Positions 26,884 to 64,000 of a DNA stretch of 64,000 bases are shown here, in pieces; the stretch's first letter is position 1, and the number at the start of each line of letters is the position of its first letter. The stretch is from Candidatus Altiarchaeota archaeon. GTDB taxonomy: Archaea > Altiarchaeota > Altiarchaeia > IMC4 > SCGC-AAA252-I15. Made by a program: the position numbers and the translations under genes. Under the pieces are notes generated by a model. That model had not been told where the DNA came from and did no database searches. It was given only the letters and a program-made list of their open reading frames with translations. The stretch is from positions 1 to 64,000 of the forward strand of contig JAZDNF010000010.1 in the NCBI GenBank assembly GCA_043800255.1, in the 5' to 3' direction.

Positions 26884-27816
26884 ATGACGGGCACGAAAGT
26901 CATCAAACTGATGCTTGAAGCCGGTGGTAGCGAGAAGCTGCCGGCGCTGAAGGAGACTATAGTGGATGCTGCTATCGCAGCCTATCTAAAGATTGCATCT
27001 CCCGGAGTCGTCCTTCGGACTGGCGATTTGCGGGAAGAATACTTCTCCACTATGAAGGAGGCGACGAGTGATTTGAACGTGAACTCCAGAGACCTGCAGA
27101 GGGTGTATGATGTTATATTCGAATCCCGGAGGGAGGAGCGAGACTTCAGCAAAAAAGCCGGCTTCTTTCTCTCGGCATTAATAGACAATTCCAGTCATAA
27201 TGCATTCGATATAACCTCAGCCGTGCCGTTAGACTTTATCGGGTTCAAACTTGGCGTCAACAAAAAATTAACCCTTGAAGGCGATGTTGGAAAAGATGCT
27301 GGCATGAACCTGGCTGGCGGGGAAATGCACGTGCATGGTAATGCAGGCGAAGAAATTGGGCGGGAGATGAAACTAGGAAAGATAACTGTAGATGGCAGTG
27401 TATCCGGCTTTGCAGGTTATCTGATGGCTGGCGGCGACATTATGATAATGGGTAATGGCGGTGGCGCCACTGGAGACCGCATGAGTGGCGGGAACATACA
27501 CGTTAAAGGAAACACTGGAGTTCAGACTGGGGTAAGCATGACCGGTGGGACCATACGGGTCGAAGGAAATGCTGGAAGGAATACCGGCGACGGAATGAGA
27601 GGGGGAGCGATATATGTAGGTGGCAATATCGAGGACATAAGCAAAGAGTACGTTGACGGCGAAATTTGGGAGGCTGGCGTGCTGAAACGGCCCAGAACCA
27701 TTGACAAAACCCGTAGAATCGCATCAAACATGTTGGAAAAAGGCGGTGATGGCCTTATAGGTGCAGTAGACCTGGTTGGGGGTTCTATTGGGAGAGCCCT
27801 TGACAGATTTTTCTGA
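26884..27816 (+). CDS. Array gene A1: GXGXG (FwdC/GltB3-like) beta-helix protein with an extra C-terminal extension
   Basis: MTGTKVIKLML...LPALKE; AGFFLSALI; beta-helix coils. Confidence 0.9.
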   Translation: MTGTKVIKLMLEAGGSEKLPALKETIVDAAIAAYLKIASPGVVLRTGDLREEYFSTMKEATSDLNVNSRDLQRVYDVIFESRREERDFSKKAGFFLSALIDNSSHNAFDITSAVPLDFIGFKLGVNKKLTLEGDVGKDAGMNLAGGEMHVHGNAGEEIGREMKLGKITVDGSVSGFAGYLMAGGDIMIMGNGGGATGDRMSGGNIHVKGNTGVQTGVSMTGGTIRVEGNAGRNTGDGMRGGAIYVGGNIEDISKEYVDGEIWEAGVLKRPRTIDKTRRIASNMLEKGGDGLIGAVDLVGGSIGRALDRFF

Positions 27817-27829
27817 CATGGTAGCCCCC

Positions 27830-27865
27830 TTTTCTGTATGAACTGTTCTTTATATAATCTGGGAA
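27830..27865 (+). promoter_or_regulatory. Array upstream motif, copy 2
   Basis: TTTTCTGTATGAACTGTTCTTTATATAATCTGGGAA directly before the ATG. Confidence 0.6.
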
Positions 27866-28531
27866 ATGACAGGCACGAAAGTCGTTAAACTCAAGCTGGA
27901 TGATGGCGGCACAGCTGATAGGCTCCCCCAGTTGAGGGGCACTGCCGGGGATAGGGCGGTTCGACTATTCAGCGACACAAAGATGCCCACAGAGATAAAG
28001 GATCTTTCGCCTCTTGAATCTGATTGTCCTTGGGAATACAAGGATAAGATGCTGGAGGAGGGCAGGAAATTGGATGTGACTCCTGAGCAGTTGCGGCTGA
28101 TATTAGCTGAAGTCGAGGACAAGTTCTCAGAGGAGGCTGGCTTCGAGGAGAGGTTGGGCCTGTTTCTAACGGGTTTGGTTGAGGGTTCATCTCATAATGA
28201 ATTCGCCTTGAGGCCGAAGACCAAGTTGAAAGAGTTTGGGTACAGGCTAAGCGCCGATAAGAAGGTAACTCTTGAGGGGAACGTGGATGACGGCTTGTGC
28301 TTTCAGATGAGCGCTGGAGAGGTTCATATAAGGGGGAGCGCTGGTGAGGGCTTGGGCAATAGCATGACTGGCGGTCGTATCATAGTCGACGGCTACGCGG
28401 ACGAGTATTGCGGCATTGGCATGCAAGGCGGCAGGATTGACGTCGCTTTGGGGATAATAAGAAAGCACGACTGCCTCCGGGAAGGCGGAGAGGTCTGGGA
28501 GAAAGGGGTGAGGATATTCCCGAGAATATGA
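27866..28531 (+). CDS. Array gene A2 (PW subfamily)
   Basis: Leader, ERLGLFLTGL and beta-helix coils. Confidence 0.9.
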   Translation: MTGTKVVKLKLDDGGTADRLPQLRGTAGDRAVRLFSDTKMPTEIKDLSPLESDCPWEYKDKMLEEGRKLDVTPEQLRLILAEVEDKFSEEAGFEERLGLFLTGLVEGSSHNEFALRPKTKLKEFGYRLSADKKVTLEGNVDDGLCFQMSAGEVHIRGSAGEGLGNSMTGGRIIVDGYADEYCGIGMQGGRIDVALGIIRKHDCLREGGEVWEKGVRIFPRI

Positions 28532-29319
28532 CCTCTACGAAAATAATCAAACTGAATCTGGAGGATAGCGGTTCTGGCGGGAAACTCCCCGCTCTGAAGG
28601 ACCCTCTGGTCGGGAAGGCTTTTGCACTTTATAGAGCGGCCGAAGAGTTCCAGATTACAGATGAGGATGGTTTTCATGAATATGCTGAGCGGGTTGATAA
28701 AGAGTTTGAAGGTTCTAATCTCACCTCAGACGATATTCAAAAAGTATATGACGCGTTTGGTGAAGAGTTTCAGCTTGACGACGAATATGGAGATCGCCTG
28801 GGAATTATAATAAACGCTCTCATACAGCATTCAAATCACAGGAAGTTTCTGTTGAAAACCAAAAAGTCAATTGGTTATATCGGCTATAAGATGTCGGATG
28901 ATAAGGCTATAACAGTTGACGGCGATGTCGGCCGCTTCACAGGCGAGCTTATGGCAGCAGGTAAGATACATGTGAAAGGAAATGCAGGTGATAATATAGG
29001 TGTGGCGATGTTAGGTGGGTTGATTGAGGTTGATGGGAACGCAGGTAACTTCACTGGAGGTTACATGAATGGTGGGAAGCTTATCATCGGAAGGAATGCG
29101 GGAACCTATACTGGAGAGCATATGGGTGGTGGGGAAATACATGTCGGAGGGGGATGTGGCGAAGCGACAGGCGATAGGATGCGCAAGGGTTTGATAAGAG
29201 TTGCGGGCAAAATAGCCGGCATCTCAACTAATCTGGGAGAGGCTGATCCAAAATTTGCTAAAATCTATCAGGGGGATGAATTACTAGTGGGAAAAGATGA
29301 CAGGCACAAGAGTCGTTAA
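28528..29319 (+). CDS. Array gene A3
   Basis: MTSTKIIKLNLE leader; coils; ATGA overlap with A2. Confidence 0.9.
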   Translation: MTSTKIIKLNLEDSGSGGKLPALKDPLVGKAFALYRAAEEFQITDEDGFHEYAERVDKEFEGSNLTSDDIQKVYDAFGEEFQLDDEYGDRLGIIINALIQHSNHRKFLLKTKKSIGYIGYKMSDDKAITVDGDVGRFTGELMAAGKIHVKGNAGDNIGVAMLGGLIEVDGNAGNFTGGYMNGGKLIIGRNAGTYTGEHMGGGEIHVGGGCGEATGDRMRKGLIRVAGKIAGISTNLGEADPKFAKIYQGDELLVGKDDRHKSR

Positions 29320-30067
29320 GCTGAAGCTGGAGGATGGGCAAAGGTCTGGGAATTTGCCTAATCTAAAGGACCCTCTCGTGGAGAAGGCCCTGAGATTGTA
29401 TGACCTCCGTGAGGGCGTTAGCGTAGATCCGACGGAGGCTGGTTTTTGGGATTATCATAATGATGTTACCTTTGAGGCTGGGGACTTGAATGTCAGCCCA
29501 TCCCAGCTTCAGGAGGTGTACTCTTCTCTGGAGTCAAGGCATGGTGGCGACTCTCAGTTTTCAATCAGGGCAGGGTTACTGATGACCGCTTTAATCCAGA
29601 GTTCAAAAGCCAGTGAGTTCAATCTGACAGTGGCATCGCCCCTCGATTATATCGGCTTCAGTCTGAGAGCAGAGAACAACGCGGATAAGAGGGTCACGAT
29701 AAACGGGAATGTGGGAGACCACACCGGCGACAGGATGAGGGGAGGAGAAATCCATGTCACAGGAGACGCTGGAGACTATAGTGGCTATTCGATGCACGGT
29801 GGCATCATCAGGGTGGACGGCAGCGTGAAAGACGACACCGGGGTTGCGATGGTATCCGGTAAGATAGAGGTTGGCGGGAACGCCGGCCAGCGGACTGCCA
29901 GGCTGATGCGCGGCGGCGAAGTGCACGTTCACGGCAACGCCGGGGACGAGACAGCAGACCAGATTGAGGCCGGAACCCTGAAGGTGGACGGAACAGTCTC
30001 CCATTACGGCGATATTCCACCGACCAGCCCTACGTTAAGAATCTACGAGGGAGGCAAGCTGAGATGA
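29297..30067 (+). CDS. Array gene A4
   Basis: Leader and coils; 5' part nearly identical to A5. Confidence 0.9.
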   Translation: MTGTRVVKLKLEDGQRSGNLPNLKDPLVEKALRLYDLREGVSVDPTEAGFWDYHNDVTFEAGDLNVSPSQLQEVYSSLESRHGGDSQFSIRAGLLMTALIQSSKASEFNLTVASPLDYIGFSLRAENNADKRVTINGNVGDHTGDRMRGGEIHVTGDAGDYSGYSMHGGIIRVDGSVKDDTGVAMVSGKIEVGGNAGQRTARLMRGGEVHVHGNAGDETADQIEAGTLKVDGTVSHYGDIPPTSPTLRIYEGGKLR

Positions 30068-30822
30068 CCGGAACCAAGATTGTCAAACTGAGGTTGGAGG
30101 GTGGGCAAAGGTCTGGGAATTTGCCTAATCTAAAGGACCCCCTTGTTGAGAAGGCCCTGAGATTGTATGACCTCCGTGAGGGCGTTAGCGTAGATCCGAC
30201 GGAGGCTGGTTTTTGGGATTATCATAATGATGTTACCTTTGAGGCTGAGGGTTTGAACGTCAACTCAGAGCAGCTTCAGAAGGTATATCCGTCTCTGGAG
30301 TCAAGGCATGGTGGCGACCCCCAGTTTTCTATACGAGCGGGGCTGCTGCTGACCGCGTTAATCCAGAACTCAGCAGAGAAGGAGTTTAATCTCATCATCG
30401 GCTCTCCCCTGGATTATGTTGGTTTTAACCTGGAGGAGGATAAGAAGGTCACAATCAACGGGAACGTCGGCAATAATGTCTGCGAGCGAATGTTCGCAGG
30501 AACGGTCGAAGTCAACGGCAATGCGGGAAACAATATTGGAAATTGGATGGCAGATGGGAAAATCATAGTCAGAGGGAACGTGGGAGACGAGGCCTGCTGG
30601 GGTATGAAAGGGGGCGAGTTGATTGTAGACGGCAATGCTGGGGAAAGAACCGGAGGATGGCTGGAAAACGGGAGAATATCCGTGAGAGGTGACGTCGGAT
30701 CTGATACAGGCTTTAAGATGTACAGCGGCAGGATCGAGGTTGGTGGCATCGTCGGAGGGATAAGCTCTGCCATCAAAGGCGGCGAAATCTACAACAAAGG
30801 AAAGAAGGTGTGGCCCAAATGA
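30064..30822 (+). CDS. Array gene A5
   Basis: Leader and coils; ATGA overlap. Confidence 0.9.
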   Translation: MTGTKIVKLRLEGGQRSGNLPNLKDPLVEKALRLYDLREGVSVDPTEAGFWDYHNDVTFEAEGLNVNSEQLQKVYPSLESRHGGDPQFSIRAGLLLTALIQNSAEKEFNLIIGSPLDYVGFNLEEDKKVTINGNVGNNVCERMFAGTVEVNGNAGNNIGNWMADGKIIVRGNVGDEACWGMKGGELIVDGNAGERTGGWLENGRISVRGDVGSDTGFKMYSGRIEVGGIVGGISSAIKGGEIYNKGKKVWPK

Positions 30823-31682
30823 CGGGAACAAAAATCGTGAAGTTGAAGTTGGAGGGGGGTGGTGATGAGAAGCTGCCGAAGCTTATGGTGGAGCCTGCCA
30901 TAGAGAAGGCGCTGAAGTTATGCAATTCCCAGGAACTTGGAGTATACTATAAGTTTCGTCAAAGCGTCATAGAGGGTTCCAGGGGTTTTGATTTCGATTC
31001 AAAGCAGGTTCAGAAGCTGATATACGCTCTCGAGGCGCAACATGGGGACGATAAGGACTATACCCAAAAGGCTGGAGTCTTCCTATCAGCCATCATGCAG
31101 GGCTCAACTGTCAAAGAATTTAACATAACGGTGGTGAAGCCGCTTGACTGGCTGTGTTACATGCTGGAAGGGGGCAAGAATGTCACAATCAATGGGACCG
31201 TAGGAGCGAACCTGGGGGACCAGATGAAAGACGGGAAGATAACAGTCAACGGCGATGCCGGGATGAGCGTCGGCAACGAGGCCTTCGGGGGCAGGATTAT
31301 CGTGAACGGCAATGCCGGGGAATTCGTCGGAAACGGGATGGCAGGCGGCAACGTCCTCGTAAAAGGTAATGCAGCCGGCCGCGCAGGCTACAAGATGGAA
31401 GCAGGAGACATCACGATAGCGGGCTCATGCGGTGACGGACTCGGCCAGTGGATGTTGGCTGGGAACATACACGTGAAAAAGAACGCAGGCAATGATACGG
31501 GCCTTGGAATCAAAGGCGGCAAGCTGAAGGTGGACGGAGATGTTGGGGAGAACACCGGCTGGAACATGGAAAAAGGAATCATAGAGCTTGGAGGAGACTA
31601 CAAAAGCTTAAGCGAGGACATCCAAGGCGGCAGAATACTCCACAAGGGCAAACAAATTTGGCCTGTGGAAACCACAAGATGA
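30819..31682 (+). CDS. Array gene A6
   Basis: Start moved to MTGTK at the ATGA overlap. Confidence 0.9.
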   Translation: MTGTKIVKLKLEGGGDEKLPKLMVEPAIEKALKLCNSQELGVYYKFRQSVIEGSRGFDFDSKQVQKLIYALEAQHGDDKDYTQKAGVFLSAIMQGSTVKEFNITVVKPLDWLCYMLEGGKNVTINGTVGANLGDQMKDGKITVNGDAGMSVGNEAFGGRIIVNGNAGEFVGNGMAGGNVLVKGNAAGRAGYKMEAGDITIAGSCGDGLGQWMLAGNIHVKKNAGNDTGLGIKGGKLKVDGDVGENTGWNMEKGIIELGGDYKSLSEDIQGGRILHKGKQIWPVETTR

Positions 31683-32365
31683 CCCGCACCAAGATTGTCA
31701 AGCTGAAGCTGGATGAGAGCGGCACAGCTGACAGGCTCCCACAGCTGAGGGATAACGCTTTAGATGAGGTCGTGGAGAAAGCTGTTCAATTGTTCGGCGA
31801 GACTGAGATGCCTACAGAGTGGAGGAATGACGCCGTCCCCCAGGGCAGGCGGGATTGTCCCTGGAAGTACAAAGACCTGATGCTGGAGGAGGGCAGGAAA
31901 TTGGATGTGACATCTGACCAGTTGCAGACTATTCTTACTGTGGTCGAGAGCAGGTTCTCAGACCAAAAAGGTTTCTCAGAGAGGCTGGGTCTGTTCCTGA
32001 CCGGGTTGATAGAAGGTTCCACTTCTAACGAGTTCAGAATCAAGCCGACAACGTTGATAACAGATTTATGCTATCACCTAAAAGCTGATAAAAAAGTAAC
32101 TGTGGAAGGCGATATTGGGGATGATGTGTGTTTTCAGATGGCGGCGGGGAGGGTTCACATAAAAGGCAATGCTGGGGAAAGTTTAGGTCAATGGATGAAC
32201 GATGGTCACATAATAGTTGACGGCAACGCCGGCAGATACTGCGGCGTAAGCATCAAAGACGGCAAAATTGAGGTCGGCGGCGAAATCGCCGAAAAATACT
32301 ACTGCTCGCGTGAAGGCGGCGAAGTCTGGGAGAAAGGCAAGAGGATATTCCCAAGAGTAAGATGA
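31679..32365 (+). CDS. Array gene A7 (PW subfamily)
   Basis: MTRTK start at the ATGA overlap. Confidence 0.9.
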   Translation: MTRTKIVKLKLDESGTADRLPQLRDNALDEVVEKAVQLFGETEMPTEWRNDAVPQGRRDCPWKYKDLMLEEGRKLDVTSDQLQTILTVVESRFSDQKGFSERLGLFLTGLIEGSTSNEFRIKPTTLITDLCYHLKADKKVTVEGDIGDDVCFQMAAGRVHIKGNAGESLGQWMNDGHIIVDGNAGRYCGVSIKDGKIEVGGEIAEKYYCSREGGEVWEKGKRIFPRVR

Positions 32366-33294
32366 CAGGCACCAAAATCGTGAAGCTGAAGCTGGAGGGG
32401 GGCGGAGCAGCTGACCGGCTGCCTCAGTTGAGAGAGCCTAGCAGGCCTGTGGAAGTCGATGAGTTGGTGAGCCTTTATGATAAGGTGATTGTGCCTGAGA
32501 ATGAGACGTGGAATGTGGGAAAATACTATGAAGGTTATCTTGCTGAGACCAATGGGATGGACACAAATCCCAAGCAGCTTCAGGAGGTGCTTGACAGGCT
32601 TGAGGAAAACTACGGCCAGGAGAGGGACTACTCTGAGAAGGCAGGGTCCCTGCTGACTGCGCTGATGCAGAATTCGCATCACAAGCTCTTCGAGTTGAAG
32701 TCTGAGCTACCCCTGTCTCGTCTCGGTTTCAGGCTTTCTGGGAGAAAGAGCGTCAGCATATCAGGCGATGTCGGGTCTGACGTTGGCAGGGAAATGGAAA
32801 ACGGTTTCATAACTGTCAATGGACACAGCGGAGACGAGCTGGGGATGGAGATGAAAGGCGGCAGGATTGTGGTCGAAAAAACCGCCAAAGACCGTGCAGG
32901 ATACAAGATGGCAGGGGGCACGATTCACGTCAAAGGGGAAGTTAATGAGGAGGCCGGCAGGCTTATGACGGCAGGCACGATCGTGATCGAAAAAAATGCG
33001 GGAGTACTCACCGGCGATGGCATGGAAGGCGGCAGCATCCATGTTAAAGGGGATGCCACAGAAAAGACAGGTTTCATGATGAAAGGCGGCAGCATACTGG
33101 TGGACGGTAATGCTGGTCCAGACACAGGGTGCATGATGAAAGGCGGCTTCATACACGTCAAAGGCAACGCCTACCAGCAGACTGGGCCGCTGGCTGAGGG
33201 CGGCAAAATCATCATAGACAAGTGGGGCATGAGCGGCGGAGGCATCAAAGAAGGGTGCGAACTCTGGATAAACGGAAAAAAGGAGAACCCATGA
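32362..33294 (+). CDS. Array gene A8
   Basis: Leader and long beta-helix. Confidence 0.9.
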   Translation: MTGTKIVKLKLEGGGAADRLPQLREPSRPVEVDELVSLYDKVIVPENETWNVGKYYEGYLAETNGMDTNPKQLQEVLDRLEENYGQERDYSEKAGSLLTALMQNSHHKLFELKSELPLSRLGFRLSGRKSVSISGDVGSDVGREMENGFITVNGHSGDELGMEMKGGRIVVEKTAKDRAGYKMAGGTIHVKGEVNEEAGRLMTAGTIVIEKNAGVLTGDGMEGGSIHVKGDATEKTGFMMKGGSILVDGNAGPDTGCMMKGGFIHVKGNAYQQTGPLAEGGKIIIDKWGMSGGGIKEGCELWINGKKENP

Positions 33295-34076
33295 CAGGAA
33301 CGAAGATAGTCAAGCTCAGGCTGGAAGATGGTGGTGCTGGCGACAAACTGCCGGAGTTGAGGGGCCGGGTTGACGAGTCTGTTCTAGGCAGGGCGCTTGA
33401 GATTTTCGAAACCACAGAGCATCAGGAAGACAGAGCTTATCATCAGCGTCTCGCTGGTGAGATATCGAATGCGGGTTTGGACATTGATAACATTACGCTG
33501 CAGGCGGTGGTTGATACCCTAGAGAAGAAGCATGCTGACGAGAAATACGATTCGACGGCTAATGAAATACACAAGAATATCGGATCGTATCAGAACAGGG
33601 CGGGCCTGCTGTATACTGCCTTGGTTCAGGCTTCCAGCAGGGACGAGTTCAAGATCAAAATGCGGAAGCCTGTTAATTTCTTGGGGCATGTTCTTGATGG
33701 AAAGAAGATCATAGTAGACGGTGATGTCGGCCACAAGGTCGGGTGGGAGATGAAACACGGAGAGATTATCGTTAACGGGAATGCCGGAATGTGGGCTGGC
33801 ATGAGCAAGCTGAATGGGAATATACATATCAAAAAGAATGCTGGGAAGTACGCAGGCAGTTGGGCGAGGGCTGGCGAAATAACAGTAGACGGTGACACTG
33901 ATGCAGGGACCGGACAGTTCCTATGCGGCGGAAGGGTTACCGTAATGGGAGACGCCAAGGGGAGTGAGACCGGTTCCAACTCCTCGTTCGGCACGATCGA
34001 TGTGAAAGGTGTGATAGAGAACATCAGCCCTAAAGTCGGGGCGACAATATACGAAAAAGGAATCAAGAAAAGATGA
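33291..34076 (+). CDS. Array gene A9
   Basis: Start moved to MTGTK at the ATGA overlap. Confidence 0.9.
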   Translation: MTGTKIVKLRLEDGGAGDKLPELRGRVDESVLGRALEIFETTEHQEDRAYHQRLAGEISNAGLDIDNITLQAVVDTLEKKHADEKYDSTANEIHKNIGSYQNRAGLLYTALVQASSRDEFKIKMRKPVNFLGHVLDGKKIIVDGDVGHKVGWEMKHGEIIVNGNAGMWAGMSKLNGNIHIKKNAGKYAGSWARAGEITVDGDTDAGTGQFLCGGRVTVMGDAKGSETGSNSSFGTIDVKGVIENISPKVGATIYEKGIKKR

Positions 34077-34750
34077 CCGGCACGAAGATTATCAAGTTGA
34101 GGTTGGATGATGGTGGTGTCGCCGACAGGCTTCCCCAGTTGAAGGATAACGCTCTGGATGAAGTCGTGGAGAAAGCTGTCGGCTTGTTCGAGAGGACTGA
34201 GATGCCCAGAGAGTGGGAGGAGGGTTTCTCGCCAGGCTGGTCTGAGGAACCGTGGAATTATAAAAAAATCATCTTGGAGGAGGGCAAGAAATTGGATGTG
34301 ACTCCCAGTCAGCTGCAGCTCATACTCACTTCCCTTGAGAGTAGGTTTCCAGACGAAGAAGGTTTCGGGGAGAGGCTGGGCATATTCCTGACCGCGTTGA
34401 TTGAAGGCTCCACTCATGAGGAGTTCACATTGCGGCCTACGACCCTGCTAAGTGATTTCGGCTACCAGCTAGAAGCGGATAAGAATATTACTGTGGAAGG
34501 CGATGTCGGGGACAATAATTTCTACAGGGTGAAGAAGGCGAAGATTCACGTGAAAGGGAACGCAGGTGATGAGATTGGCCATGACCTGGATGGCGGCCAC
34601 ATCCTAATCGACGGAGACTGCGGGGAGGGCTGCGGCCGCAGGATGAAGAAGGGCAAGATCGAGGTCGGCGGGAAGATAGAGAACACGTACGGCTGCGCTA
34701 GATACGGCGGACAAGTCTGGGAAAAAGGCAAAAAAGTGTACCCACTATGA
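34073..34750 (+). CDS. Array gene A10 (PW subfamily)
   Basis: Leader, ERLGIFLTAL and coils. Confidence 0.9.
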   Translation: MTGTKIIKLRLDDGGVADRLPQLKDNALDEVVEKAVGLFERTEMPREWEEGFSPGWSEEPWNYKKIILEEGKKLDVTPSQLQLILTSLESRFPDEEGFGERLGIFLTALIEGSTHEEFTLRPTTLLSDFGYQLEADKNITVEGDVGDNNFYRVKKAKIHVKGNAGDEIGHDLDGGHILIDGDCGEGCGRRMKKGKIEVGGKIENTYGCARYGGQVWEKGKKVYPL

Positions 34751-35382
34751 CAGGAACCAAGGTTGTTAAACTGAAGCTTGATGGGGAGGGGCATGAGAAA
34801 CTTCCCAAGCTGATGGATGACAAGGTCGTAGTGGAGGCGGCTTTGGGAATCTACGGGGGGACGAAGTACCAGGGAGAATGGGGTGAGATTCCCAAGTACC
34901 ATCAGGAGGTGATGCGAAAGGCTGGGGAGTTGAACGTTAACACAATACAATTGCAGAAGATTATTGATATCCTATACGGAGAATTTGGCGGCGGGAAGGA
35001 GCTTGATAAAAAATTGGGGCTTTTCACGACGGCGCTGATACAGGCCTCATCGCACGACAAGTTCAGCATCAAACCTCCCCTGCCCATGTCCTGGCTCGGA
35101 TTTCAGCTCAAAGGCAACAAGAATATTACCGTAGAAGGGGACGCGTGGAATTGGGTCGGATTTGAGATGGAAGGCGGAACGCTGAGGATAGGCGGGAACG
35201 TGGGCGACGATCTTGGTTGGGGTATGAAGGGCGGCAGGATTGAGGTTGGGAAGGAGGCAGGGCACAATGCTGGCAACCAGATGGAAGGCGGGACGATAGA
35301 CGTGAAAGAGAAAATTCGAAGTGTGAGCTCGCTGGTTAAAGGCGGCGAGATAATCATAGCGGGTGTGAAGGTCAGGCCATGA
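34747..35382 (+). CDS. Array gene A11
   Basis: Leader and short beta-helix. Confidence 0.9.
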   Translation: MTGTKVVKLKLDGEGHEKLPKLMDDKVVVEAALGIYGGTKYQGEWGEIPKYHQEVMRKAGELNVNTIQLQKIIDILYGEFGGGKELDKKLGLFTTALIQASSHDKFSIKPPLPMSWLGFQLKGNKNITVEGDAWNWVGFEMEGGTLRIGGNVGDDLGWGMKGGRIEVGKEAGHNAGNQMEGGTIDVKEKIRSVSSLVKGGEIIIAGVKVRP

Positions 35383-40931: not shown

Positions 40932-40958
40932 CCGGTTTAGACCCTCCGGTTCGCACAT

Positions 40959-54730: not shown

Positions 54731-55464
54731 CCGGGACTAAGGTTGTCAAACTGAAATTAGACGACGGTAGTCTCGGCGAGAGGCTGCCCCAAATCAGGGA
54801 AAATACCGCTGAGAAGGCTGTGGAATTGTACCTCACGTTGGGCGAACGCGATCCCATCATCAGCTGCCACAACAGGGCTGTGAGCGCTTTCCAAGAGTAT
54901 GATGCCAGCTCAACACAGCTGCAGAATGTTATCAACACGCTGGAGGAAAACTTCGGCTCCGATGAGGAGTACAGCTGGAGGGCCGGGTTCATAGTCAACG
55001 CCCTGGTCCTGAACTCAAAACACGCGAGGCTGAAAATAAAACCGAAACTGCCTTTGGATTATATAGGCTTCAAAATGGACGCCAAAAAGCACATCACCGT
55101 CGAGGGCGACCTTGGTGATGAAACCGGAGCAGACATGCAAGATGGTAGAATACATGTCGGAGGATCTGCAAAGAATCAGACCGGCAGCGGAATGAAAGGC
55201 GGCAGCATACAAGTTGACGGTAACGTTAACTGGCTTACGGCAGCAAACATGCAAGGAGGCACATTACACATCCGAGGGGATGCTGGAAACGCTCTTGGAT
55301 TTGGCTTGTGCGGTGGCACTATAATCGTGGAAGGCAACATAGGGAATCGTACAGCAGACATGATGCATGGCGGAGTCATCAAAGCCGGGGGGAAGATTGA
55401 GAGCATAGACGAAAATTATCAATCCGGAGAAATCTGGGAATCCGAGATTAAGGTGCGGGGATGA
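54727..55464 (+). CDS. Array gene A30
   Basis: Leader and coils. Confidence 0.9.
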   Translation: MTGTKVVKLKLDDGSLGERLPQIRENTAEKAVELYLTLGERDPIISCHNRAVSAFQEYDASSTQLQNVINTLEENFGSDEEYSWRAGFIVNALVLNSKHARLKIKPKLPLDYIGFKMDAKKHITVEGDLGDETGADMQDGRIHVGGSAKNQTGSGMKGGSIQVDGNVNWLTAANMQGGTLHIRGDAGNALGFGLCGGTIIVEGNIGNRTADMMHGGVIKAGGKIESIDENYQSGEIWESEIKVRG

Positions 55465-56141
55465 ACAGGCAGAAGATCATAAAACTGAAACTGGAGGGAG
55501 GGGCTCCTGACAAGTTGCCGCAGCTGAAGGAGAGTGCGGTGGATACGGCTGTGGCAGCCTATCGGAGTGTGCCGTGGGAGGCGTTGGAGGGCTCCTACTA
55601 CAACAATGTGGTGAGGGCGTTGGATGGTGTCGACGTCCGCCCGGAGAAGCTGCAGGAGGTAATGGACGCGGTCGAGAAGCCTGGAGTCAGAGACAGCGCA
55701 CATAATCTGTTCGCTGGGATTTTCCTATCCGCACTAGTCAACACATCCTCCCGCAAGAAATTCAAGTTCAGGCCGAAGTCGCAGATGGATTGGGTCGGTT
55801 ACAGTTTGGAGGAAGGTAAAGAGCTCACAGTGGACGGGAACGTTGGCATTATGGCTGGGAGAGAAATGACGGGAGGTAGATTACATATCAGAGGCGACGC
55901 GAGAACATACGCGGGATGCGATATTAAAGACGGGGAGATGCTCGTCGATGGGAGCGTTGGAGACTCTGGTGGTCAGGGCATGATAGGGGGTACCCTGACT
56001 GTGAAAGGGGATGCGGGGTCGAATCTTGGGAACTTCCAGTCCGGGGGGAGGATAAACGTTGAAGGGGAGGTCAAGAGTTTCGGCCCGCACATGATGGGCG
56101 GCGAAATCTACAACAAAGGCGAGAGAGTGTGGCCGAAATGA
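55461..56141 (+). CDS. Array gene A31
   Basis: Variant leader MNRQKIIKLKLEGG and coils. Confidence 0.9.
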   Translation: MNRQKIIKLKLEGGAPDKLPQLKESAVDTAVAAYRSVPWEALEGSYYNNVVRALDGVDVRPEKLQEVMDAVEKPGVRDSAHNLFAGIFLSALVNTSSRKKFKFRPKSQMDWVGYSLEEGKELTVDGNVGIMAGREMTGGRLHIRGDARTYAGCDIKDGEMLVDGSVGDSGGQGMIGGTLTVKGDAGSNLGNFQSGGRINVEGEVKSFGPHMMGGEIYNKGERVWPK

Positions 56142-56914
56142 CTAGGACGAAGATCGTGAAGCTGAAATTGGAACGTGGAACTTATGACAAGCTGCCGGAT
56201 TTAAGGGATGGTTATCCAACATTTTTTCTAAATGTTCTCAGGGAGTTGCAAGGTCTTAACATGCCGATGCGGACTAATTCTGAGGCTGATATTGGCGCAT
56301 GCTTCGAGAAGGCGTTTGAAAAGTCGAAGGGGTTGGATCTGAATTCCGAAAGGCTCCAGAGGGTATATGATTCTCTGAAAAATCACATCTCTGATCGCCC
56401 CCATAGTAACCATACATCAAACATTTGGGCAGGGTTATTATTGACGGCGTTGATGCAAGACTCGAGTCATACTGATTTCACGCTTAGTGTGAACAAGCGG
56501 CTGGATTTTATGGGGTTCGGGCTTAATGGAAAGAGGATAACTATGGTGGGGGATGTGGGGGACTATCCCGGCAGTCAAATGAACGGAGGGAGCATAACAG
56601 TGAAAGGAAACGCTGGCGACTATGTTGGCTTCAACATGGGCAGAGGAGAAATCCAAATAGAAGGAAATGCGTCAGATTATGCGGGATCGTGCATGAGAGG
56701 CGGCTACATCCACGTCAAACATGTCGGAGATTATGCAGGTCACGAGATGATCGATGGTGTTATCACAGTATCGGGGGACGCAGGAGAGCACACAGGAAAG
56801 CGGAGCAAGGGGGGAGCAATCCGAGTCGGCGGCATAATCGAAAGCGCATCAAGAGACGGTATGTGCAAGATAGAACCTCTGGAAGACCCAGATGACATAG
56901 GTTTTGACATATGA
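56138..56914 (+). CDS. Array gene A32
   Basis: MTRTK start at the ATGA overlap. Confidence 0.9.
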   Translation: MTRTKIVKLKLERGTYDKLPDLRDGYPTFFLNVLRELQGLNMPMRTNSEADIGACFEKAFEKSKGLDLNSERLQRVYDSLKNHISDRPHSNHTSNIWAGLLLTALMQDSSHTDFTLSVNKRLDFMGFGLNGKRITMVGDVGDYPGSQMNGGSITVKGNAGDYVGFNMGRGEIQIEGNASDYAGSCMRGGYIHVKHVGDYAGHEMIDGVITVSGDAGEHTGKRSKGGAIRVGGIIESASRDGMCKIEPLEDPDDIGFDI

Positions 56915-57759
56915 CGGGCACAAAGATTGTTAAACTGAATCTGGAAGGTGGAGCTAATGTCAAGCTGCCTAGCCTTCGGGAGACTGCCGTTGACCACAAA
57001 GCGGTTGAGAAGGCCATCAGGATATACGAGGAGACTAAGAGCCCGATGATAGACGGTTTCATACCGACTGAGGGGCAAAAACTTCAAGAGCTTGAGGAGG
57101 AATACTACCAGAAGATTATGAAGGCCACTAAGGGATTGAACGTGAACTCCGACCAGCTGCAGGAGGTAGTCGACTATCTGCAGGCTGATTTTGGGAGGGA
57201 GATGCGTTACACCCAGAACGGGTACTTTCTCACGGCGCTGATACGGCATTCGAAGTTCAGCGAGTTCACGATCCGGCCCAAGGAGCATTTGCATGATGTC
57301 GGTTTCAGACTGAACGCGGACAAGACGATCATAATCGAGGGGAACGTTGGCGGAGGCGTTGGAACCGAGATGGAGGCAGGCACGATAATCATCAAAGGTG
57401 ACGCTGGAAGCTATACTGGCTACGGGATGAAAGGAGGGAGAATACATATTCTGGGGAACGCTGAGGATGGAACAGCTGCCAGGATGGAAGCCGGGGATAT
57501 AATAGTGGAGGGTAACAGCGGAAAAAACACGGGCGAGCACATGCATGGCGGAAGCCTCGAAGTTGGAGGCAGTGCCGGAGACTACACTGCTCTAGGAATG
57601 GAGGCCGGGAAAATCTACATAAAGAGGAATTCGGGCGTCGAAACAGCCTATAGCATGGCCGGCGGCACACTCAAGGTTGACGGCAGAATAAAGGACATAA
57701 GCGTCATGTACGAGGCTGGCACCATCATAGAAGCTGGGACGCAGGTGAGACCATTATGA
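56911..57759 (+). CDS. Array gene A33
   Basis: Leader and coils. Confidence 0.9.
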   Translation: MTGTKIVKLNLEGGANVKLPSLRETAVDHKAVEKAIRIYEETKSPMIDGFIPTEGQKLQELEEEYYQKIMKATKGLNVNSDQLQEVVDYLQADFGREMRYTQNGYFLTALIRHSKFSEFTIRPKEHLHDVGFRLNADKTIIIEGNVGGGVGTEMEAGTIIIKGDAGSYTGYGMKGGRIHILGNAEDGTAARMEAGDIIVEGNSGKNTGEHMHGGSLEVGGSAGDYTALGMEAGKIYIKRNSGVETAYSMAGGTLKVDGRIKDISVMYEAGTIIEAGTQVRPL

Positions 57760-58568
57760 CGGGGACGAAAATCGTCAAAGTAAGGCTGGACGGCAACGGA
57801 GCCGGTGACGGACTTCCGAGGCTTAGGGAGGACCCTACCGTCAAGAAGGCGGTCGACCTGTTCGAGTCGTTGCCGTATAATATCTCAGCTTCGGATGACT
57901 CGAAATACTTTGATGGTGTCATTGACGGTTGCGAAGGGTGGAATCTACAGTCCCCGGAAATTCAGAAGACACTGGACACGCTGATAGAAAAACATTCCAT
58001 GAGCGCTGGCTTCATCAAGAGGGCCGGACTCTTCATATCCGCTTTGATAGAGGGTTCAACGCACAGGAAATTCGACTTAGAAGTTCATCAACCCCTGGAT
58101 TATATCGGGTACCATCTGCGAGGCGGGAAGGAGATAACATTGAAGGGAGACGTTGGCAAGGGCTTGGGATTCGGGATGGGCGGCATCGAAGCCAGCAGCA
58201 TAACCTTGGACGGCAACGCAGGATTCGGAGTTGGAGGCTGGATGTGCTCTGGCAAAATCCACGTCAAGGGAGACGCCGGGAACTCGGTCGGCTTCTGCTT
58301 GGGGAAGTTCTTTTTCCCGGACATGGGAGAGCGTGGCATACCCCTGCCGCATACACCGCCCCTGATAATAATAGACGGCAACGCGGGAACCGAGACTGGA
58401 AACGGGATGCGCGAGGGTAAAATCCAGGTGAATGGGGAGATGGGAGAGAATGCAGGTCCTAGTATGGACGGCGGCATCATAGAAGCAGGTAAGGTTAAAG
58501 GGGTGAGCGCACATTTCAAATGGGGGAGAATCTACGAAAATGGAGTGCTTATAGCAGGACGAGAATGA
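57756..58568 (+). CDS. Array gene A34
   Basis: Leader and coils with a loop insertion. Confidence 0.9.
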   Translation: MTGTKIVKVRLDGNGAGDGLPRLREDPTVKKAVDLFESLPYNISASDDSKYFDGVIDGCEGWNLQSPEIQKTLDTLIEKHSMSAGFIKRAGLFISALIEGSTHRKFDLEVHQPLDYIGYHLRGGKEITLKGDVGKGLGFGMGGIEASSITLDGNAGFGVGGWMCSGKIHVKGDAGNSVGFCLGKFFFPDMGERGIPLPHTPPLIIIDGNAGTETGNGMREGKIQVNGEMGENAGPSMDGGIIEAGKVKGVSAHFKWGRIYENGVLIAGRE

Positions 58569-59374
58569 CCGGGACGAAAGTAGTCAAGCTGAGGTTGGAC
58601 GAGGAAGGGTCGGTTGGCAGGCTGCCGAACCTGATGGATGCGGTGGTTGAGAAGGCTGTTAGCGTGTTCGCTCGCAGGAACTATTTCACGTTGGCGAAGG
58701 ATGGGGGTGAGGCGTATGATCATATGCTAAAGGATGTGCAGGGCTTTGACGTCAGTAGGAGTCAGCTGCAGGGCATCCTCGGAATGCTGGAGGAGAAGTA
58801 CAAGCACAGTCCCTGGCGGTTCACGATGATCGGGCCGTTCCTGTCCGCCCTGGTTGAGAAATCGCATGAGAACGAGTTCGAGCTGGTGTTGACCGATAAG
58901 GTGCAGTCCATCGGCTACAGGCTGAGAGACGGCAAGAGGATAACATGCATCGGAGACGTCGGCAGCGCAGGCGACAAAATGTCAGGCGGCCTGATAATGG
59001 TGAAAGGCGACATCGGCGACCTGATGGGGCGGGACATGACCGGGGGAAAAATCATCGTAGCGGGCGGCGCCGGGAACCAGACAGGATATCATATGAGCGG
59101 CGGCGAAATCGAGATCAAAAAATCAGCAAGAGACTATCCAGGATGCAACATGAGCGGGGGAAAAATCAAGATCGGAGAAAATGCCGGCAACTACGCTGGA
59201 TTCAACATGAGCAAAGGCGAAATCCACATCCTGGGAAACGCTAACATCGGCGCAGGCTCAGGCATGAGCGGAGGCAAAATAACCGTGGACGGCAGGATAT
59301 TCGGGCTCATAAGAGACGTCAAAGGCGGCGAGATTTGGGAAGGCGGCACGCAAATCTGGCCGAAACAAAAATGA
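58565..59374 (+). CDS. Array gene A35
   Basis: Start moved to MTGTK at the ATGA overlap. Confidence 0.9.
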   Translation: MTGTKVVKLRLDEEGSVGRLPNLMDAVVEKAVSVFARRNYFTLAKDGGEAYDHMLKDVQGFDVSRSQLQGILGMLEEKYKHSPWRFTMIGPFLSALVEKSHENEFELVLTDKVQSIGYRLRDGKRITCIGDVGSAGDKMSGGLIMVKGDIGDLMGRDMTGGKIIVAGGAGNQTGYHMSGGEIEIKKSARDYPGCNMSGGKIKIGENAGNYAGFNMSKGEIHILGNANIGAGSGMSGGKITVDGRIFGLIRDVKGGEIWEGGTQIWPKQK

Positions 59375-60135
59375 CCGGCACGAAGGTTATCAAACTCAGG
59401 CTTGAGGGAGGCGCTGATAGTAATCTGCCAAAGCTCAGGGAAGGCATTGCAACTGAGTTGTGTGTTCTCTATGAACAGCTTCCCTATACTCTAAGTTTTG
59501 ATGTTACTAACTCTAATATAAGCAAACTGACGGAAACGTTAGGTTTTGATAGGGGGCAGCTTGAGAGCATCGATTCCAGCCAACTTCAGTGCGTGTACGA
59601 TGCACTTGAGGACAGATTCAAGGGAGATGGGAATTTCGGCCACAAGTGCGGCATCCTACTGACGTATCTTATGAGTCATTCAAGGCATAATGAGTTCAAG
59701 CTGAAGGTGAACAAGCCATTAAGCCGTCTCGGGGCATACTTCACGGAGGGTAAGAAGCTGACAGTCGTTGGGGACGTTAAAGATTATGTAGGATATAAGA
59801 TGCGTGGGGGAGAGATAACAGTAAAAGGCTCGGCAGGAGCGTGGTTGGGATATGAGATGGAACAAGGGAGCATACTCCTGGAGAAGAACGCTGATACATG
59901 GGCTGGAAACCAAATGAAAGGGGGAAGACTTCACGTGAAGGGGAATTCAGGAGAATGGACTGGCGAGCGCATGGAAGGCGGCATATTGCAGGTGGACGGT
60001 GACAGCGGCGAGGAAACCGGAAATAATATGGATGGTGGCGTAATAAACGTGAACGGCAAGATTGCGGGTGTTGGGCGCATCTTTGAAGATTCAACGGGTG
60101 AATTACGGCACAGGGGGGTGAAAATAGCACCATGA
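59371..60135 (+). CDS. Array gene A36
   Basis: Start moved to MTGTK at the ATGA overlap. Confidence 0.9.
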   Translation: MTGTKVIKLRLEGGADSNLPKLREGIATELCVLYEQLPYTLSFDVTNSNISKLTETLGFDRGQLESIDSSQLQCVYDALEDRFKGDGNFGHKCGILLTYLMSHSRHNEFKLKVNKPLSRLGAYFTEGKKLTVVGDVKDYVGYKMRGGEITVKGSAGAWLGYEMEQGSILLEKNADTWAGNQMKGGRLHVKGNSGEWTGERMEGGILQVDGDSGEETGNNMDGGVINVNGKIAGVGRIFEDSTGELRHRGVKIAP

Positions 60136-60821
60136 CCGGCACGAAGGTCGTCAAGTTGAGGTTGGAGGATGATGGTAAGGATTTGCCGAAGCTGAAGGGC
60201 AGCGTCATTGATGAGGCTGTCGAGCTGTTCGAGAAAATCGACTGGGAGAATAATCTGGTGGGATACCATGAAAAAGTTCTGAAGAAAACCAGAAGATTGG
60301 ACGCTAACTCGGCTGCGGTGCAGGGTATAGTCTACCAGTTGGAAGACAACTTTGCTAAAGGCGACATGCAGGACAAGTTCTACTTCAAGCGGATGGGAGC
60401 CTTCCTCACAGGGTTGATAGAGAATTCAACCTCAGAGGAACTAGAATTCGAAACCAGGACTCCACTGGACTACATAGGCTACCTGATGAACGCGGAGAAG
60501 ACCATCACAGTAAACGGTGCGGCAGGCGATATGACCGGGTACATGATGAGAAGAGGCCTCATAAGGGTTAAAGGCGACTCAGGGTTCTGGACCGGCTGCC
60601 AGCTTGCAGGCGGAAAAGTCGAAGTCGAAGGCAGCACAGGCGAGTACACCGGCCAGCAGATGGAGACTGGAGAGATAACCGTGAAAAAGGATGCTGGAAG
60701 GAAAACAGGGCTGCGCATGAAAGGCGGCAGAATCGAAGTCGGCGGCAGCATCGGAGACATCGGACCTGTCATCAAAGGCGGCGAAATCTACAACAAAGGG
60801 GAGCGGGTGTGGCCGAAATGA
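60132..60821 (+). CDS. Array gene A37
   Basis: Leader and coils. Confidence 0.9.
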   Translation: MTGTKVVKLRLEDDGKDLPKLKGSVIDEAVELFEKIDWENNLVGYHEKVLKKTRRLDANSAAVQGIVYQLEDNFAKGDMQDKFYFKRMGAFLTGLIENSTSEELEFETRTPLDYIGYLMNAEKTITVNGAAGDMTGYMMRRGLIRVKGDSGFWTGCQLAGGKVEVEGSTGEYTGQQMETGEITVKKDAGRKTGLRMKGGRIEVGGSIGDIGPVIKGGEIYNKGERVWPK

Positions 60822-61567
60822 CGGGAACCAAGGTAATCAAGTTGAGGCTGGAGCAGGGCGGTGCAGCCGAGAGGCTTCCGGACCTTAAGGGCGATGTCAA
60901 AGGCAAGCTTGTCAGAATATTCAACGAGACAGATTATTTCGAGTCAGATGAGGGAGTATCCTGCTATGACCGGTTCGTCCAGCAGACGGAAGGGTTAGGC
61001 GCCGGTCAGGAGCGGATACAGGATGTGTTAGACTTCCTATTGGATGATGAGAATGCAATAGACCAGGTCTACCGTCAAAAAGTCGGATACCTTGTGAGCG
61101 CGCTAATCCATAACTCACGCCAGAGGGAATTCAGGATACGCCTGAAACATCCCGTAGACTGGGTCGGCTACAGGCTTGAAGGCGGGAAAAAGATAACCGT
61201 AGACGGTGATGTGGCATACGGTGTCGGCTCGGAGATGCGCTCTGGGACGATAATCGTCAATGGAAATTCATGGTTGGGAGCCGGCTTTAAAATGGCAGGA
61301 GGAAACGTCATAATACGAGGGAACTCAGGCAGGCTCACCGGGTTGGAAATGACCGGAGGTCGGCTTCTGATTAAAGGGGGCGCGGGAGACGAGACAGGCG
61401 CTAGTATGACTGGAGGAGTACTACACGTAAAAAAGGATGTCGGAGCAGAGACTGGGATAGGCATGGCAGATGGCATAATCAACGTAGGCGGGGACATCAA
61501 GAGCATATCCGACGACACTGGATATGGGAAAATCTACCACAAAGGAGAGAAGGTGCGCCCAAGATGA
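60818..61567 (+). CDS. Array gene A38
   Basis: Start moved to MTGTK at the ATGA overlap. Confidence 0.9.
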   Translation: MTGTKVIKLRLEQGGAAERLPDLKGDVKGKLVRIFNETDYFESDEGVSCYDRFVQQTEGLGAGQERIQDVLDFLLDDENAIDQVYRQKVGYLVSALIHNSRQREFRIRLKHPVDWVGYRLEGGKKITVDGDVAYGVGSEMRSGTIIVNGNSWLGAGFKMAGGNVIIRGNSGRLTGLEMTGGRLLIKGGAGDETGASMTGGVLHVKKDVGAETGIGMADGIINVGGDIKSISDDTGYGKIYHKGEKVRPR

Positions 61568-62277
61568 CGGGAACCAAGGTCGTAAAGTTGAAGCTGGATG
61601 GTAGTGGGAAATCAAAAGAGCTGCCCAGTCTCATGGACGGTGTCGTAGAGAAGGCCGCGGCTATTGTAGGCGAGCTTGAGCCTCTTGTGGGAGGGTGGAA
61701 TCACGTATACGAGCACATAGAAGAAAAAACAAGGCGCATGCATGTCACGCCAAAGCAGTTGCAGGATATGATAGAGATCGGCGAACACCAATACTTGATA
61801 GAGATCGGCGAACACCCATACTCTGAGGTTGAAAAATACAGTTGGAAGATGGGACTCCTCGTGTCCGCATTAATTAACAGTTCCCCCCACGACAACTTCA
61901 CAGTGAAGACTGAGATACCCTTATGCTATCTGGGCTACCGCCTGAAAGAGGGGAAGAAGATTACCGTGGAAAGTAAGGTTGACGAATCTGTTGGCAGGGA
62001 GAACATGGGCGGCCATATTCACGTGAAAAAAAATGCCGGCTGGTATGCCGGCGCCGATATGAGAACAGGGCTGCTGGAAATAGACGGAGATGCCGGGCGT
62101 GCGACAGGCGCCCGGATGAAAGGCGGGGAACTGCACGTCAAAGGAGACACTGAATTTGACACGGCAGTAGAGATGGAGGGGGGAAAACTCATAATAGATG
62201 GGAAAGCGATGGGCGCAGGACATAGTATAAAAGGCGGAGAAATCTGGGAAGCCGGGAAAAAGGTGTTCTCAAGATGA
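61564..62277 (+). CDS. Array gene A39
   Basis: Leader and coils; internal 27-bp duplication. Confidence 0.9.
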   Translation: MTGTKVVKLKLDGSGKSKELPSLMDGVVEKAAAIVGELEPLVGGWNHVYEHIEEKTRRMHVTPKQLQDMIEIGEHQYLIEIGEHPYSEVEKYSWKMGLLVSALINSSPHDNFTVKTEIPLCYLGYRLKEGKKITVESKVDESVGRENMGGHIHVKKNAGWYAGADMRTGLLEIDGDAGRATGARMKGGELHVKGDTEFDTAVEMEGGKLIIDGKAMGAGHSIKGGEIWEAGKKVFSR

Positions 62278-63140
62278 CAGGCACGAAAGTCGTAAAGCTG
62301 AAGTTGGAAGACGGTGGCGCTGAGAGGCTCCCGCATCTGAAGGAGTCTGCTGTCAGTAAATCGTTGGAAGTTTACAAAAAAACCGAGAACATGAGCCTGT
62401 CTGATCACATGCTTATGCTAGATTATCATGAGACAGTGTCTAAGGAATCAAAAGGTTTGGATTTAACTTCAGCAGAGATTCAGGAACTATCTGATCTGCT
62501 TGAGGATAGTGCTTCAGTAGGTTTATCCCACCCGTTTAGACGTGGGATATTCCTGTCAGCTCTGATACAAAGTTCCAGTCAAAAAAAATTCAGACTAAAA
62601 ACCAAAACCCTCTTGCATTGCATTGGATACATGTTGAATGATAAAGAAAAGAAGATTACTGTGGAAGGCGATGCCGGAGATTACACTGGACAGCATATGA
62701 ATGCAGGACAAGTTAGCATTACAGGAAATGCAGGCGATTTTACCGGCTGGAGCATGAGTGGTGGCTCGATAAAAATCGAAAAAGACGCCCGAAATAATCT
62801 CGCAGCATTTATGAGTAATGGTATCATACTCGTAAAAGGAAACGCAAGAGACTACGCCGGGCAGGAGATGGTGGGAGGCAGACTACATATTGGAGGAACA
62901 GCAAGAAACTACCTAGGCAATTCCGTAAAATCAAATGCTACAATACGGGTTGAAAAGGACATAGGAGATCATGCCGCGCTTATGATGAGCGGGGGGACCA
63001 TCGAGGTCAAAGGAAAAGCCGGGAAATATCTTGGATCACATATGGTTGGCGGCACAGTAAAGGTGGCAAAAGGAATCGAGGAGATCAGCAAAGACTTCCA
63101 AGACGGGAGCATACAAGAAAAAGGAGAGTGGGTGAGATAA
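62274..63140 (+). CDS. Array gene A40
   Basis: Leader and coils. Confidence 0.9.
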   Translation: MTGTKVVKLKLEDGGAERLPHLKESAVSKSLEVYKKTENMSLSDHMLMLDYHETVSKESKGLDLTSAEIQELSDLLEDSASVGLSHPFRRGIFLSALIQSSSQKKFRLKTKTLLHCIGYMLNDKEKKITVEGDAGDYTGQHMNAGQVSITGNAGDFTGWSMSGGSIKIEKDARNNLAAFMSNGIILVKGNARDYAGQEMVGGRLHIGGTARNYLGNSVKSNATIRVEKDIGDHAALMMSGGTIEVKGKAGKYLGSHMVGGTVKVAKGIEEISKDFQDGSIQEKGEWVR

Positions 63141-64000
63141 TGACCAGCACTAAAGTCGTTAAGTTAAAGTTGGAGGGTGAGGGCGGCGCTGAGAGGCTCC
63201 CGCATCTGAAGGAGGGAAAAATCAAGCAGGCTTTGGAACTGTTTGACAGCATACCCTACCGCGCCCAGGGTGAAACCAATTTCGACTATGAGGGCTATTA
63301 CCGGAAAGTGCTTGAGGGCGCTGAGATGATAAACGCTTCAGAATCGGAAGTCCAGAAGATTCTCGCAGCGTTGGAGGCCAAGCAGTCTGAAATCGGCGGG
63401 TATCCAGAGCATGTCGGAACCTTCATAACCGCGATGATGCAGGGTTCCAAAGCACGGGAGTTCACCCTCAGGCCGGCATACTACCTGCACCATATCGGTG
63501 AGTACCTGCAAGGTGACAAGAAGATCACAGTATTCGGTGACATGGGCACGGTGGCGAGCCGCATGCGCGGCGGCGAGCTGATAATCAAGGGGAACGTCTT
63601 CGATAACTCAGGTGAGAAGATGTCCGGCGGAAAGCTGATAATAGAAGGGCATGCAGGCGGCGACTTGGGGCGTGAGATGGGTGGCGGCCTGATAGAGGCT
63701 GCAGAGGCTCGGGGCAGGCTATTAGGTTGTTACATGTGGGGCGGCACGATCAGGATCAAGGGAGACGCCGGCGACGAGATAGGAGCGAACATGTCGAAAG
63801 GCGAAATATACGTCGGAGGGAACGCTGGCAAAAAACTGGGCTATAAGATGCACGGCGGAAAGATTGTAGTAGATGGGGAAGCTGGATACAATGTGGGCGA
63901 TTTCGCCGACGGCGGGCAGATCATCGTCGGAAAGAAGATAACGTCGCTTGGATTTGTGTGCTCGCAGTGCGAGGTCATAGTAGCAGGAGAGAAGGTGGCG
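63140..64000 (+). CDS. Array gene A41 (truncated by the window end; not in the ORF track)
   Basis: TAATG overlap; MTSTKVVKLKLEGEGGAERLPHLKE...VGTFITAMMQGS... with coils open to 64000. Confidence 0.9.
   Translation, partial: MTSTKVVKLKLEGEGGAERLPHLKEGKIKQALELFDSIPYRAQGETNFDYEGYYRKVLEGAEMINASESEVQKILAALEAKQSEIGGYPEHVGTFITAMMQGSKAREFTLRPAYYLHHIGEYLQGDKKITVFGDMGTVASRMRGGELIIKGNVFDNSGEKMSGGKLIIEGHAGGDLGREMGGGLIEAAEARGRLLGCYMWGGTIRIKGDAGDEIGANMSKGEIYVGGNAGKKLGYKMHGGKIVVDGEAGYNVGDFADGGQIIVGKKITSLGFVCSQCEVIVAGEKVA

Follow-up and report, generated by a model that had tools for sequence, protein, structure and literature searches.

Genomic setting of a tagged gene array

The window analyzed here comprises the first 64 kb of the 131-kb contig C15 (JAZDNF010000010.1) in the genome assembly of a Candidatus Altiarchaeota archaeon (hereafter G000; 1.75 Mb, 17 contigs, 93% complete). 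It holds the start of an array of tandem genes whose products, referred to below as clients, share a short N-terminal peptide (the tag) and which surrounds a gene pair encoding an AAA+ ATPase and a protein that combines an HExxH motif with a von Willebrand factor A (vWA) domain. When the whole assembly was scanned in six frames for the tag motif, 94 tag cores were located, 92 on the forward strand of C15, two on the reverse strand of a second contig (C10), and none elsewhere. When start positions were relaxed, the array grew to 97 genes (C15:26884-107661), which together with the two genes on C10 gives 99 tagged genes. A common N-terminal tag on every gene of the array had been predicted from the letters of the window, and the set proved larger than claimed. 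Within the window, 41 tagged array genes start and 40 are complete, 25 of them lying before the vWA gene and 16 of the 41 after the AAA+ gene.

All array genes are on the forward strand and encode proteins of 153-447 aa (median 256), with 75.9 kb of coding sequence in a span of 80.8 kb. The sole break is the divergent pair, in which the vWA gene (reverse strand) and the AAA+ gene (forward strand) are 53 bp apart. Four-nucleotide ATGA overlaps occur at 76 of the 96 array gene junctions and a purine-rich stretch lies at -14 to -9 of each array start, which points to translational coupling along an operon of ∼81 kb.

The tag is conserved as a peptide

Each of the 97 array proteins opens with some form of MTGTKVVKLKLE-x-GG-x(3-4)-LP-x-L-K, and their alignment yields the consensus MTGTKVVKLKLExGGxxxxLPxLK, in which a basic, strand-like TKVVKLKLE is followed by a glycine-rich turn and then LPxLK. 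Across these proteins M1, K8, L11, and P20 are invariant, each of T4, K5, L9, L19, and L22 occurs in at least 90%, and residue 12 is acidic (E/D) in 92 of 94 tags. Conservation is by far strongest in the first 12 residues of the array proteins; mean entropy is 0.59 bit over alignment columns 1-10 against 1.66-3.4 bits (mostly ∼2.3) in later ten-column blocks.

This conservation does not extend to synonymous sites. The Thr2 codons (n = 94) include ACA (32), ACC (26), ACG (14), and ACT (11), and four-fold degenerate third positions inside the tag reach 1.7-1.9 bit, as scrambled as elsewhere. We computed proportions of nonsynonymous (pN) and synonymous (pS) differences from 600 of the 4,656 array gene pairs. 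Codons 2-12 had a pN of 0.134 with a saturated pS of 0.774, compared to 0.351 and 0.699 for codons 13-25, 0.521 and 0.750 for the helical domain that follows, and 0.445 and 0.724 for the beta-helix. Low pN combined with saturated synonymous sites indicates selection on the peptide, as originally predicted, rather than on the RNA or an effect of gene conversion. Whole-protein pairwise identity is low (median 36%, with just 10 of the 4,656 pairs above 50%), so that the family is old and the conservation of the tag reflects long purifying selection rather than recent duplication or gene conversion.

The tag contains no hydrophobic h-region, the Kyte-Doolittle(15) maximum within the first 45 residues having a median of 0.35 and a highest value of 1.61, and a twin-arginine motif is absent from its consensus. 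Both absences agree with the original prediction. An h-region after a charged N-terminus, the hallmark by which Sec, Tat, and class III signal peptides were assessed, is thus lacking.

The tag lies outside the predicted fold of the client

An AlphaFold2 model of a 288-aa client, built from the 97-row alignment, has a mean predicted local distance difference test (pLDDT) score of 91.5 and places four helices at residues 26-100 (pLDDT 83-98) before a beta-helix at 105-288. The secondary-structure listing contains a helix (86-100) preceding the beta-helix and a terminal hairpin (258-282) following it. The ∼75 residues after the tag, described at first as barely alignable, are indeed divergent but not featureless, since they form this confidently predicted four-helix domain and carry the motif AGxFLTALxQNS. 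Residues 1-25 were assigned no DSSP element, and pLDDT drops to 63 for residues 1-10 and 55 for residues 11-20. A homotrimer prediction for the same client, run without controls, scored 0.00 against a mark of 0.42, which we take as evidence in neither direction.

The beta-helix belongs to a known fold. Six of the seven array proteins scanned matched the Pfam family GXGXG (PF01493) at 40.6-57.3 bits (cut-off 32.5); in the first block of the array these are three of the four genes scanned (starting at 26884, 32362, and 38750), with no match for the gene at 40470. A profile of the 97 proteins matches FwdC chains (5t5i_C, E 1.8e-33) only at positions 109-233, which correspond to the beta-helix, and Foldseek superposes the beta-helix on FwdC/FhcC with a root-mean-square deviation of 1.6-2.5 Å over 154-180 columns. 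Fold and repeat motif are thus shared with FwdC/FmdC and with the C-terminal GXGXG domain of glutamate synthase, but FwdC offers no aligned counterpart for either the tag or the four-helix domain. Identity of the clients with FwdC/FmdC was rejected because their scores fall below both NCBIfam equivalog cut-offs (TIGR03122, 112.2 vs 130.65 bits; NF042910, 75.6 vs 340).

A natural fusion in the array (52545-53888) retains two client bodies and carries the tag on its N-terminal module alone; the second module consists of a helical domain (..LGLFLTALIENSS..) and a beta-helix, with nothing tag-like at the expected place. Distant homologues of the body, retrieved by searching 1.84 billion representative proteins, lack profile positions 1-22. 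Of the 86 body matches at E ≤ 1e-10, 84 were the array's own, one was a C10 protein, and one was an 82-aa helical domain, and twelve weaker matches were listed beyond that threshold. The N-terminal module was found in G000 alone among 61 genomes of the phylum, save for one marginal match (7.4e-4). A single-protein query located one body-homologue locus in Micrarchaeota, a 5.7-kb contig with neither a Walker-A nor a vWA gene. Being loose in the model, missing from the fusion's second module, and missing from distant homologues, the tag does not form part of the predicted fold; judged from the model and these comparisons, it is dispensable for the folding of the module. The outcome that would have spoken most directly against a recognition signal, namely a tag that is an obligatory part of each monomer's own fold and is kept equally well by homologues without the AAA+/vWA pair, was not encountered.

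Three of the distant homologues, the metagenome proteins P0094, P0095, and P0098, have a different conserved N-terminal motif (..RFGxFKPEEE..), which in the two-module P0094 recurs before the second module, beside an RLPKL motif.

The tag also occurs at a second locus

A hidden Markov model (HMM) of the tag was searched against the 2,413 other open reading frames (ORFs) of the genome of at least 100 aa. Only two neighboring genes on C10 matched (E 5e-12 and 1e-10); every other ORF scored E 0.54 or worse. One encodes a short beta-helix member of 219 aa with the tag. In the product of the other (P0002, 416 aa), the tag precedes a long, alpha-helical-looking body that aligns to the profile with low confidence only and for which we found no GXGXG domain, no other Pfam or NCBIfam family, and no beta-helix alignment. 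The tag thus appears to be portable, as it is present at a second locus on a protein without a detectable beta-helix. The two C10 genes (L005 7051-8957) sit in a separate operon with HEAT-like and multi-helix-turn-helix proteins.

The AAA+ and HExxH-vWA pair

In the vWA protein, a low-complexity linker lies between an N-terminal zincin-like HEAGHH motif and a C-terminal vWA domain that contains an intact metal ion-dependent adhesion site (MIDAS; DGSGS..T..D). We found 11 homologues with 26-33% identity by BLASTP (29-34% in the alignment). Across the 12 aligned sequences, H101-H106 (HEAGHH, including H101, E102, and H105) reaches at least 90% conservation, and D535, S537, S539, and D648 of the MIDAS are invariant. 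By structure, the N-terminal domain resembles unnamed N-terminal domains of other vWA/CobT-like proteins (template modeling (TM) score 0.67-0.75). The AAA+ protein is orthologous to AAA+ proteins of candidate phyla radiation (CPR) bacteria (31% identity over ∼700 aa; E 2e-84 and 5e-89). Its rhodanese domain (residues 743-838), with an acidic Cys loop (CDSDGDS), is missing from five aligned orthologues, some of which end instead in the C-terminal tag of their clients.

Related loci keep the pair and change the clients

Among 60 other Altiarchaeota genomes, a full-length vWA homologue adjoining an AAA+ gene was present in two (G038 and G041, of the same family). These genomes encode an alpha-helical tagged family (33 matches in G041, 20 in G038, none in G000) with an N-terminal tag (..QPLL.PP..) and a C-terminal tag (..LPPLK+[FL]) of its own, and its members are dispersed over many contigs. 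No ORF of G000 ends in the LPPLK+[FL] motif, and the G000 tag profile retrieved a single, unrelated match from five sister genomes (E 0.77).

Outside the phylum, the vWA gene was located in Candidatus Daviesbacteria, Doudnabacteria, two Staskawiczbacteria, two proteobacterial metagenome-assembled genomes (MAGs), and 12 metagenome contigs. In ten loci with flanking sequence (L020-L028 and L031; L033 duplicates L023 and was left out), it stands among 1-11 tandem tagged genes of 250-300 aa. Bacterial clients carry a conserved N-terminal peptide (e.g. ..RINIKDLVIEEPE..) and a C-terminal motif, [LIM]P-x-x-[KR]-x-[FY], which was present in all 58 clients found by the N-terminal motif. Within a locus, identity averages 0.61 for the N-terminal tag, 0.61 for the C-terminal tag, and 0.20 for the body, and between loci it is 0.41 for tags and 0.18 for bodies. 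The AAA+ protein itself ends in the client C-terminal motif in L020, L022, and L024. The one bacterial client modeled is predicted to fold as an alpha-solenoid (pLDDT 91.3), with pLDDT down to 62-74 in the 20 residues at either end. The 58 clients share no Pfam family, and a Foldseek search with the model returned nothing at E ≤ 0.001. Genes of the bacterial arrays do not overlap, yet the clients are tagged at both ends. Of all the cases that we encountered, the G000 array is the largest.

Candidate functions of the tag

The same motor and adaptor thus occur with different client folds, and every client family is tagged, which favors recognition of the tag by the pair. This retention of motor and adaptor, with client bodies swapped and tags persisting, is in our assessment of the sequences the decisive comparative evidence. 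We consider it probable that the tag serves for docking or engagement, as a handle by which a machine formed by the AAA+ and HExxH-vWA (MIDAS) proteins recognizes its clients. Of the three functions first proposed for it, a handle for the AAA+/vWA machine is the one favored by the comparative data, whereas an export or loading signal and a donor strand for polymerization are unsupported.

Under the handle reading, a flexible N-terminus of 25 residues would mark ∼99 clients for one machine encoded inside the array, and the tag would be the element that the machine engages. The vWA protein may bind it, and the near-invariant acidic residue 12 could then sit at the MIDAS metal. As another option, the AAA+ ring might seize the tag as a free end, free flexible ends being what AAA+ rings engage. 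Subsequent trimming of the tag by the HExxH domain is conceivable, the conservation of its motif making such removal possible. The variable surfaces of the solenoids suggest a repertoire of binding proteins. A broader proposition, which we put forward only tentatively, would treat the array as a tag-addressed repertoire, in which ∼100 diversified solenoids from one coupled 81-kb operon are each plugged by a terminal peptide into a single AAA+/vWA-metallopeptidase hub. It would represent an undescribed protein-handling or recognition system across domains (CPR bacteria, DPANN archaea, Altiarchaeota) that kept tag and motor and swapped the client fold.

Several points weigh against a handle. Binding of the tag by the machine is something we infer from comparison. 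The two C10 genes lie far from the pair, so the linkage between tag and machine is not absolute, and the short proteobacterial contigs L018 and L019 carry the pair with no tagged gene in the flank present. Profile-profile comparison (hhalign) of the archaeal N-terminal module with the bacterial clients gave a probability of 1%; archaeal and bacterial tags are therefore not demonstrably homologous, and the parallel is one of architecture rather than sequence. A likeness by eye between the G000 tag and the N-termini of the G038 and G041 AAA+ proteins (L123 and L124; ..TVPLQVKDDGERLPPLI..) was not significant (E 1.9) and was rejected. Tags of G038 and G041 have no fixed acidic residue after the strand, which weakens the proposed MIDAS contact. 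The N-terminal domain of the vWA protein has no Pfam or PDB sequence match and only sub-threshold structural similarity to M48 peptidases (TM 0.43-0.51). The AAA+ protein scores 21.8 bits against AAA_5 (cut-off 22), a family of the MoxR clade, and its profile finds in the PDB weak Lon/Rpt P-loop matches alone (best E 1e-3).

An assembly role for the tag is the rival that survives best, although we regard it as unlikely. Here the tag strand would join a neighboring subunit, ∼97 equimolar coupled products would build a hetero-polymer or lattice, and the AAA+/vWA pair would be a mere assembly chaperone. The alternating hydrophobic and basic pattern of the tag, its flexibility in the monomer model, and the stoichiometric co-production suggested by the ATGA overlaps all suit such a lattice. 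However, the additional elements that flank the beta-helix on either side (helix 86-100 and hairpin 258-282) read as predicted caps in the secondary-structure listing, and conservation of the C-terminal strands falls far short of that of the tag, which leaves no acceptor site of matching conservation in evidence. Clients of the sister genomes, moreover, are dispersed and not co-translated. The donor strand proposed at the outset found no positive support.

We judge it improbable that the tag acts within its own protein or message, either folding back on the body or, as nascent peptide or first codons, aiding re-initiation in the overlapped operon. The ATGA overlap does force an A at codon 2, a purine-rich stretch lies upstream of starts, and an invariant tag leaves AlphaFold2 without covariation by which to place it. 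Against a translational role, synonymous sites are saturated, the tag is kept in genes preceded by spacers of 40-71 nt, and the bacterial arrays are tagged at both ends without being overlapped; against a role in folding, the internal module of the fusion by homology folds without the tag.

A targeting signal, for a non-Sec export route or for entry into a protein compartment, has very little probability in our view: the N-terminal position of the tag, its conservation, flexibility, and portability would suit it, and the array lies among large surface-type protein genes, but the tag has no hydrophobic region, no secretion or shell gene was noticed in the ten related operons (from motif flags and ORF termini, with no family or membrane-segment search), and in bacteria a C-terminal tag is required as well, which the soluble AAA+ protein carries in three of the loci.

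Relation to known AAA+/vWA systems

Two-component remodelers that combine an AAA+ protein with a vWA-MIDAS protein are known as MoxR-type pairs, e.g. CbbQ-CbbO, NorQ-NorD, and RavA-ViaA, and those known to us act on single dedicated clients. Here too, a gene for a vWA protein with a complete MIDAS stands beside an AAA+ gene, and the pair presumably acts on separate clients. Unlike in MoxR-type pairs, the vWA partner has a conserved HExxH domain, and the clients are dozens to ∼100 diverged paralogs with a common terminal peptide.

AAA+ unfoldases recognize terminal degron or engagement tags, and the MIDAS of Midasin contacts a ubiquitin-like (UBL) domain. In these cases, as proposed here, the motor or MIDAS takes hold of its target by a flexible terminal peptide or an acidic residue. 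Unlike them, the loci described here have no protease chamber or ribosome-assembly context, and the tag is encoded on every client.

Effector-associated domains (EADs) are small folded domains. In vWA-MoxR ternary conflict systems, they are described as a shared N-terminal adaptor on up to 22 proteins per genome with a proposed coupling to the vWA/AAA+ core, and are proposed to act by homotypic contact and to occur on the core protein as well (Kaur et al. 2020, PMC7159879). On that description, EADs and the tag are both shared N-terminal elements proposed to couple many proteins to a vWA/AAA+ core. The tag differs in being an unstructured peptide of 25 residues, and the G000 AAA+ protein is not among the tag-HMM matches listed to E ∼25. 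Arrays, solenoid clients, and the HExxH fusion are features of the present system beyond the portions of the EAD description compared (PMC7159879).

Literature searches, which did not cover supplements, turned up no account of tagged arrays next to such a pair of AAA+ and vWA genes. If the handle reading is true, 25 residues portable between folds would constitute a simple, testable code governing 4.6% of this genome as well as large gene families in many uncultured small-genome bacteria and archaea. It would give a first clue to the function of hundreds of proteins named by no family library and add a tag-directed mode to AAA+/vWA remodelers.

Features of the window and its surroundings

Table 1. 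Coordinates of the array, the gene pair, and individual client genes in the window
Feature	Position	Strand	Basis
Array block 1: 25 tandem genes (tag, four-helix domain, and GXGXG beta-helix), mostly ATGA-joined	26884..46001	+	ORFs, Pfam
HExxH-vWA protein, 738 aa	46002..48218	-	HEAGHH motif, vWA with intact MIDAS
AAA+ ATPase, 850 aa, C-terminal rhodanese	48272..50824	+	Walker A GEPGTGKT; CPR orthology
Array block 2 within the window: 16 genes, the last starting at 63140 and ending at 64009 on the contig; array continues to 107661	50837..64000	+	
Representative client gene, 288 aa, with the tag at 1-25, the helices at 26-100, and the beta-helix at 105-288	62274..63140	+	AlphaFold2
Representative tag, codons 1-25 of the modeled gene	62274..62348	+	AlphaFold2, DSSP
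Two-module natural fusion, 447 aa; internal module without tag	52545..53888	+	Sequence comparison
Shortened member, 153 aa: tag and helical domain, no beta-helix	40470..40931	+	No Pfam family

GC skew is +0.19 to +0.31 in most 2-kb bins of the array. For window positions 56000-63000 no sequencing run was listed, and no holder of RNA data either. A recent segmental duplication within it involves window positions 63140-64000, L001:140-2037, and L001:12029-16131, and the duplicated gene pairs (82% and 67% identical) are the closest pairs of the family.

Upstream, the array is flanked by lamin-tail proteins (window 1996-13708, reverse strand, and 23262-26738, forward strand); the lamin-tail domains are common to NHL-repeat proteins of giant size (1417 and 2485 aa) and to an M6 peptidase that carries CBM96. 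Beyond the array lie another four large ORFs (831-1782 aa), and N-terminal hydrophobic stretches occur in at least some of them. The window also encodes FtsZ, with 75-82% identity to FtsZ of Candidatus Altiarchaeales/Altiarchaeota MAGs.

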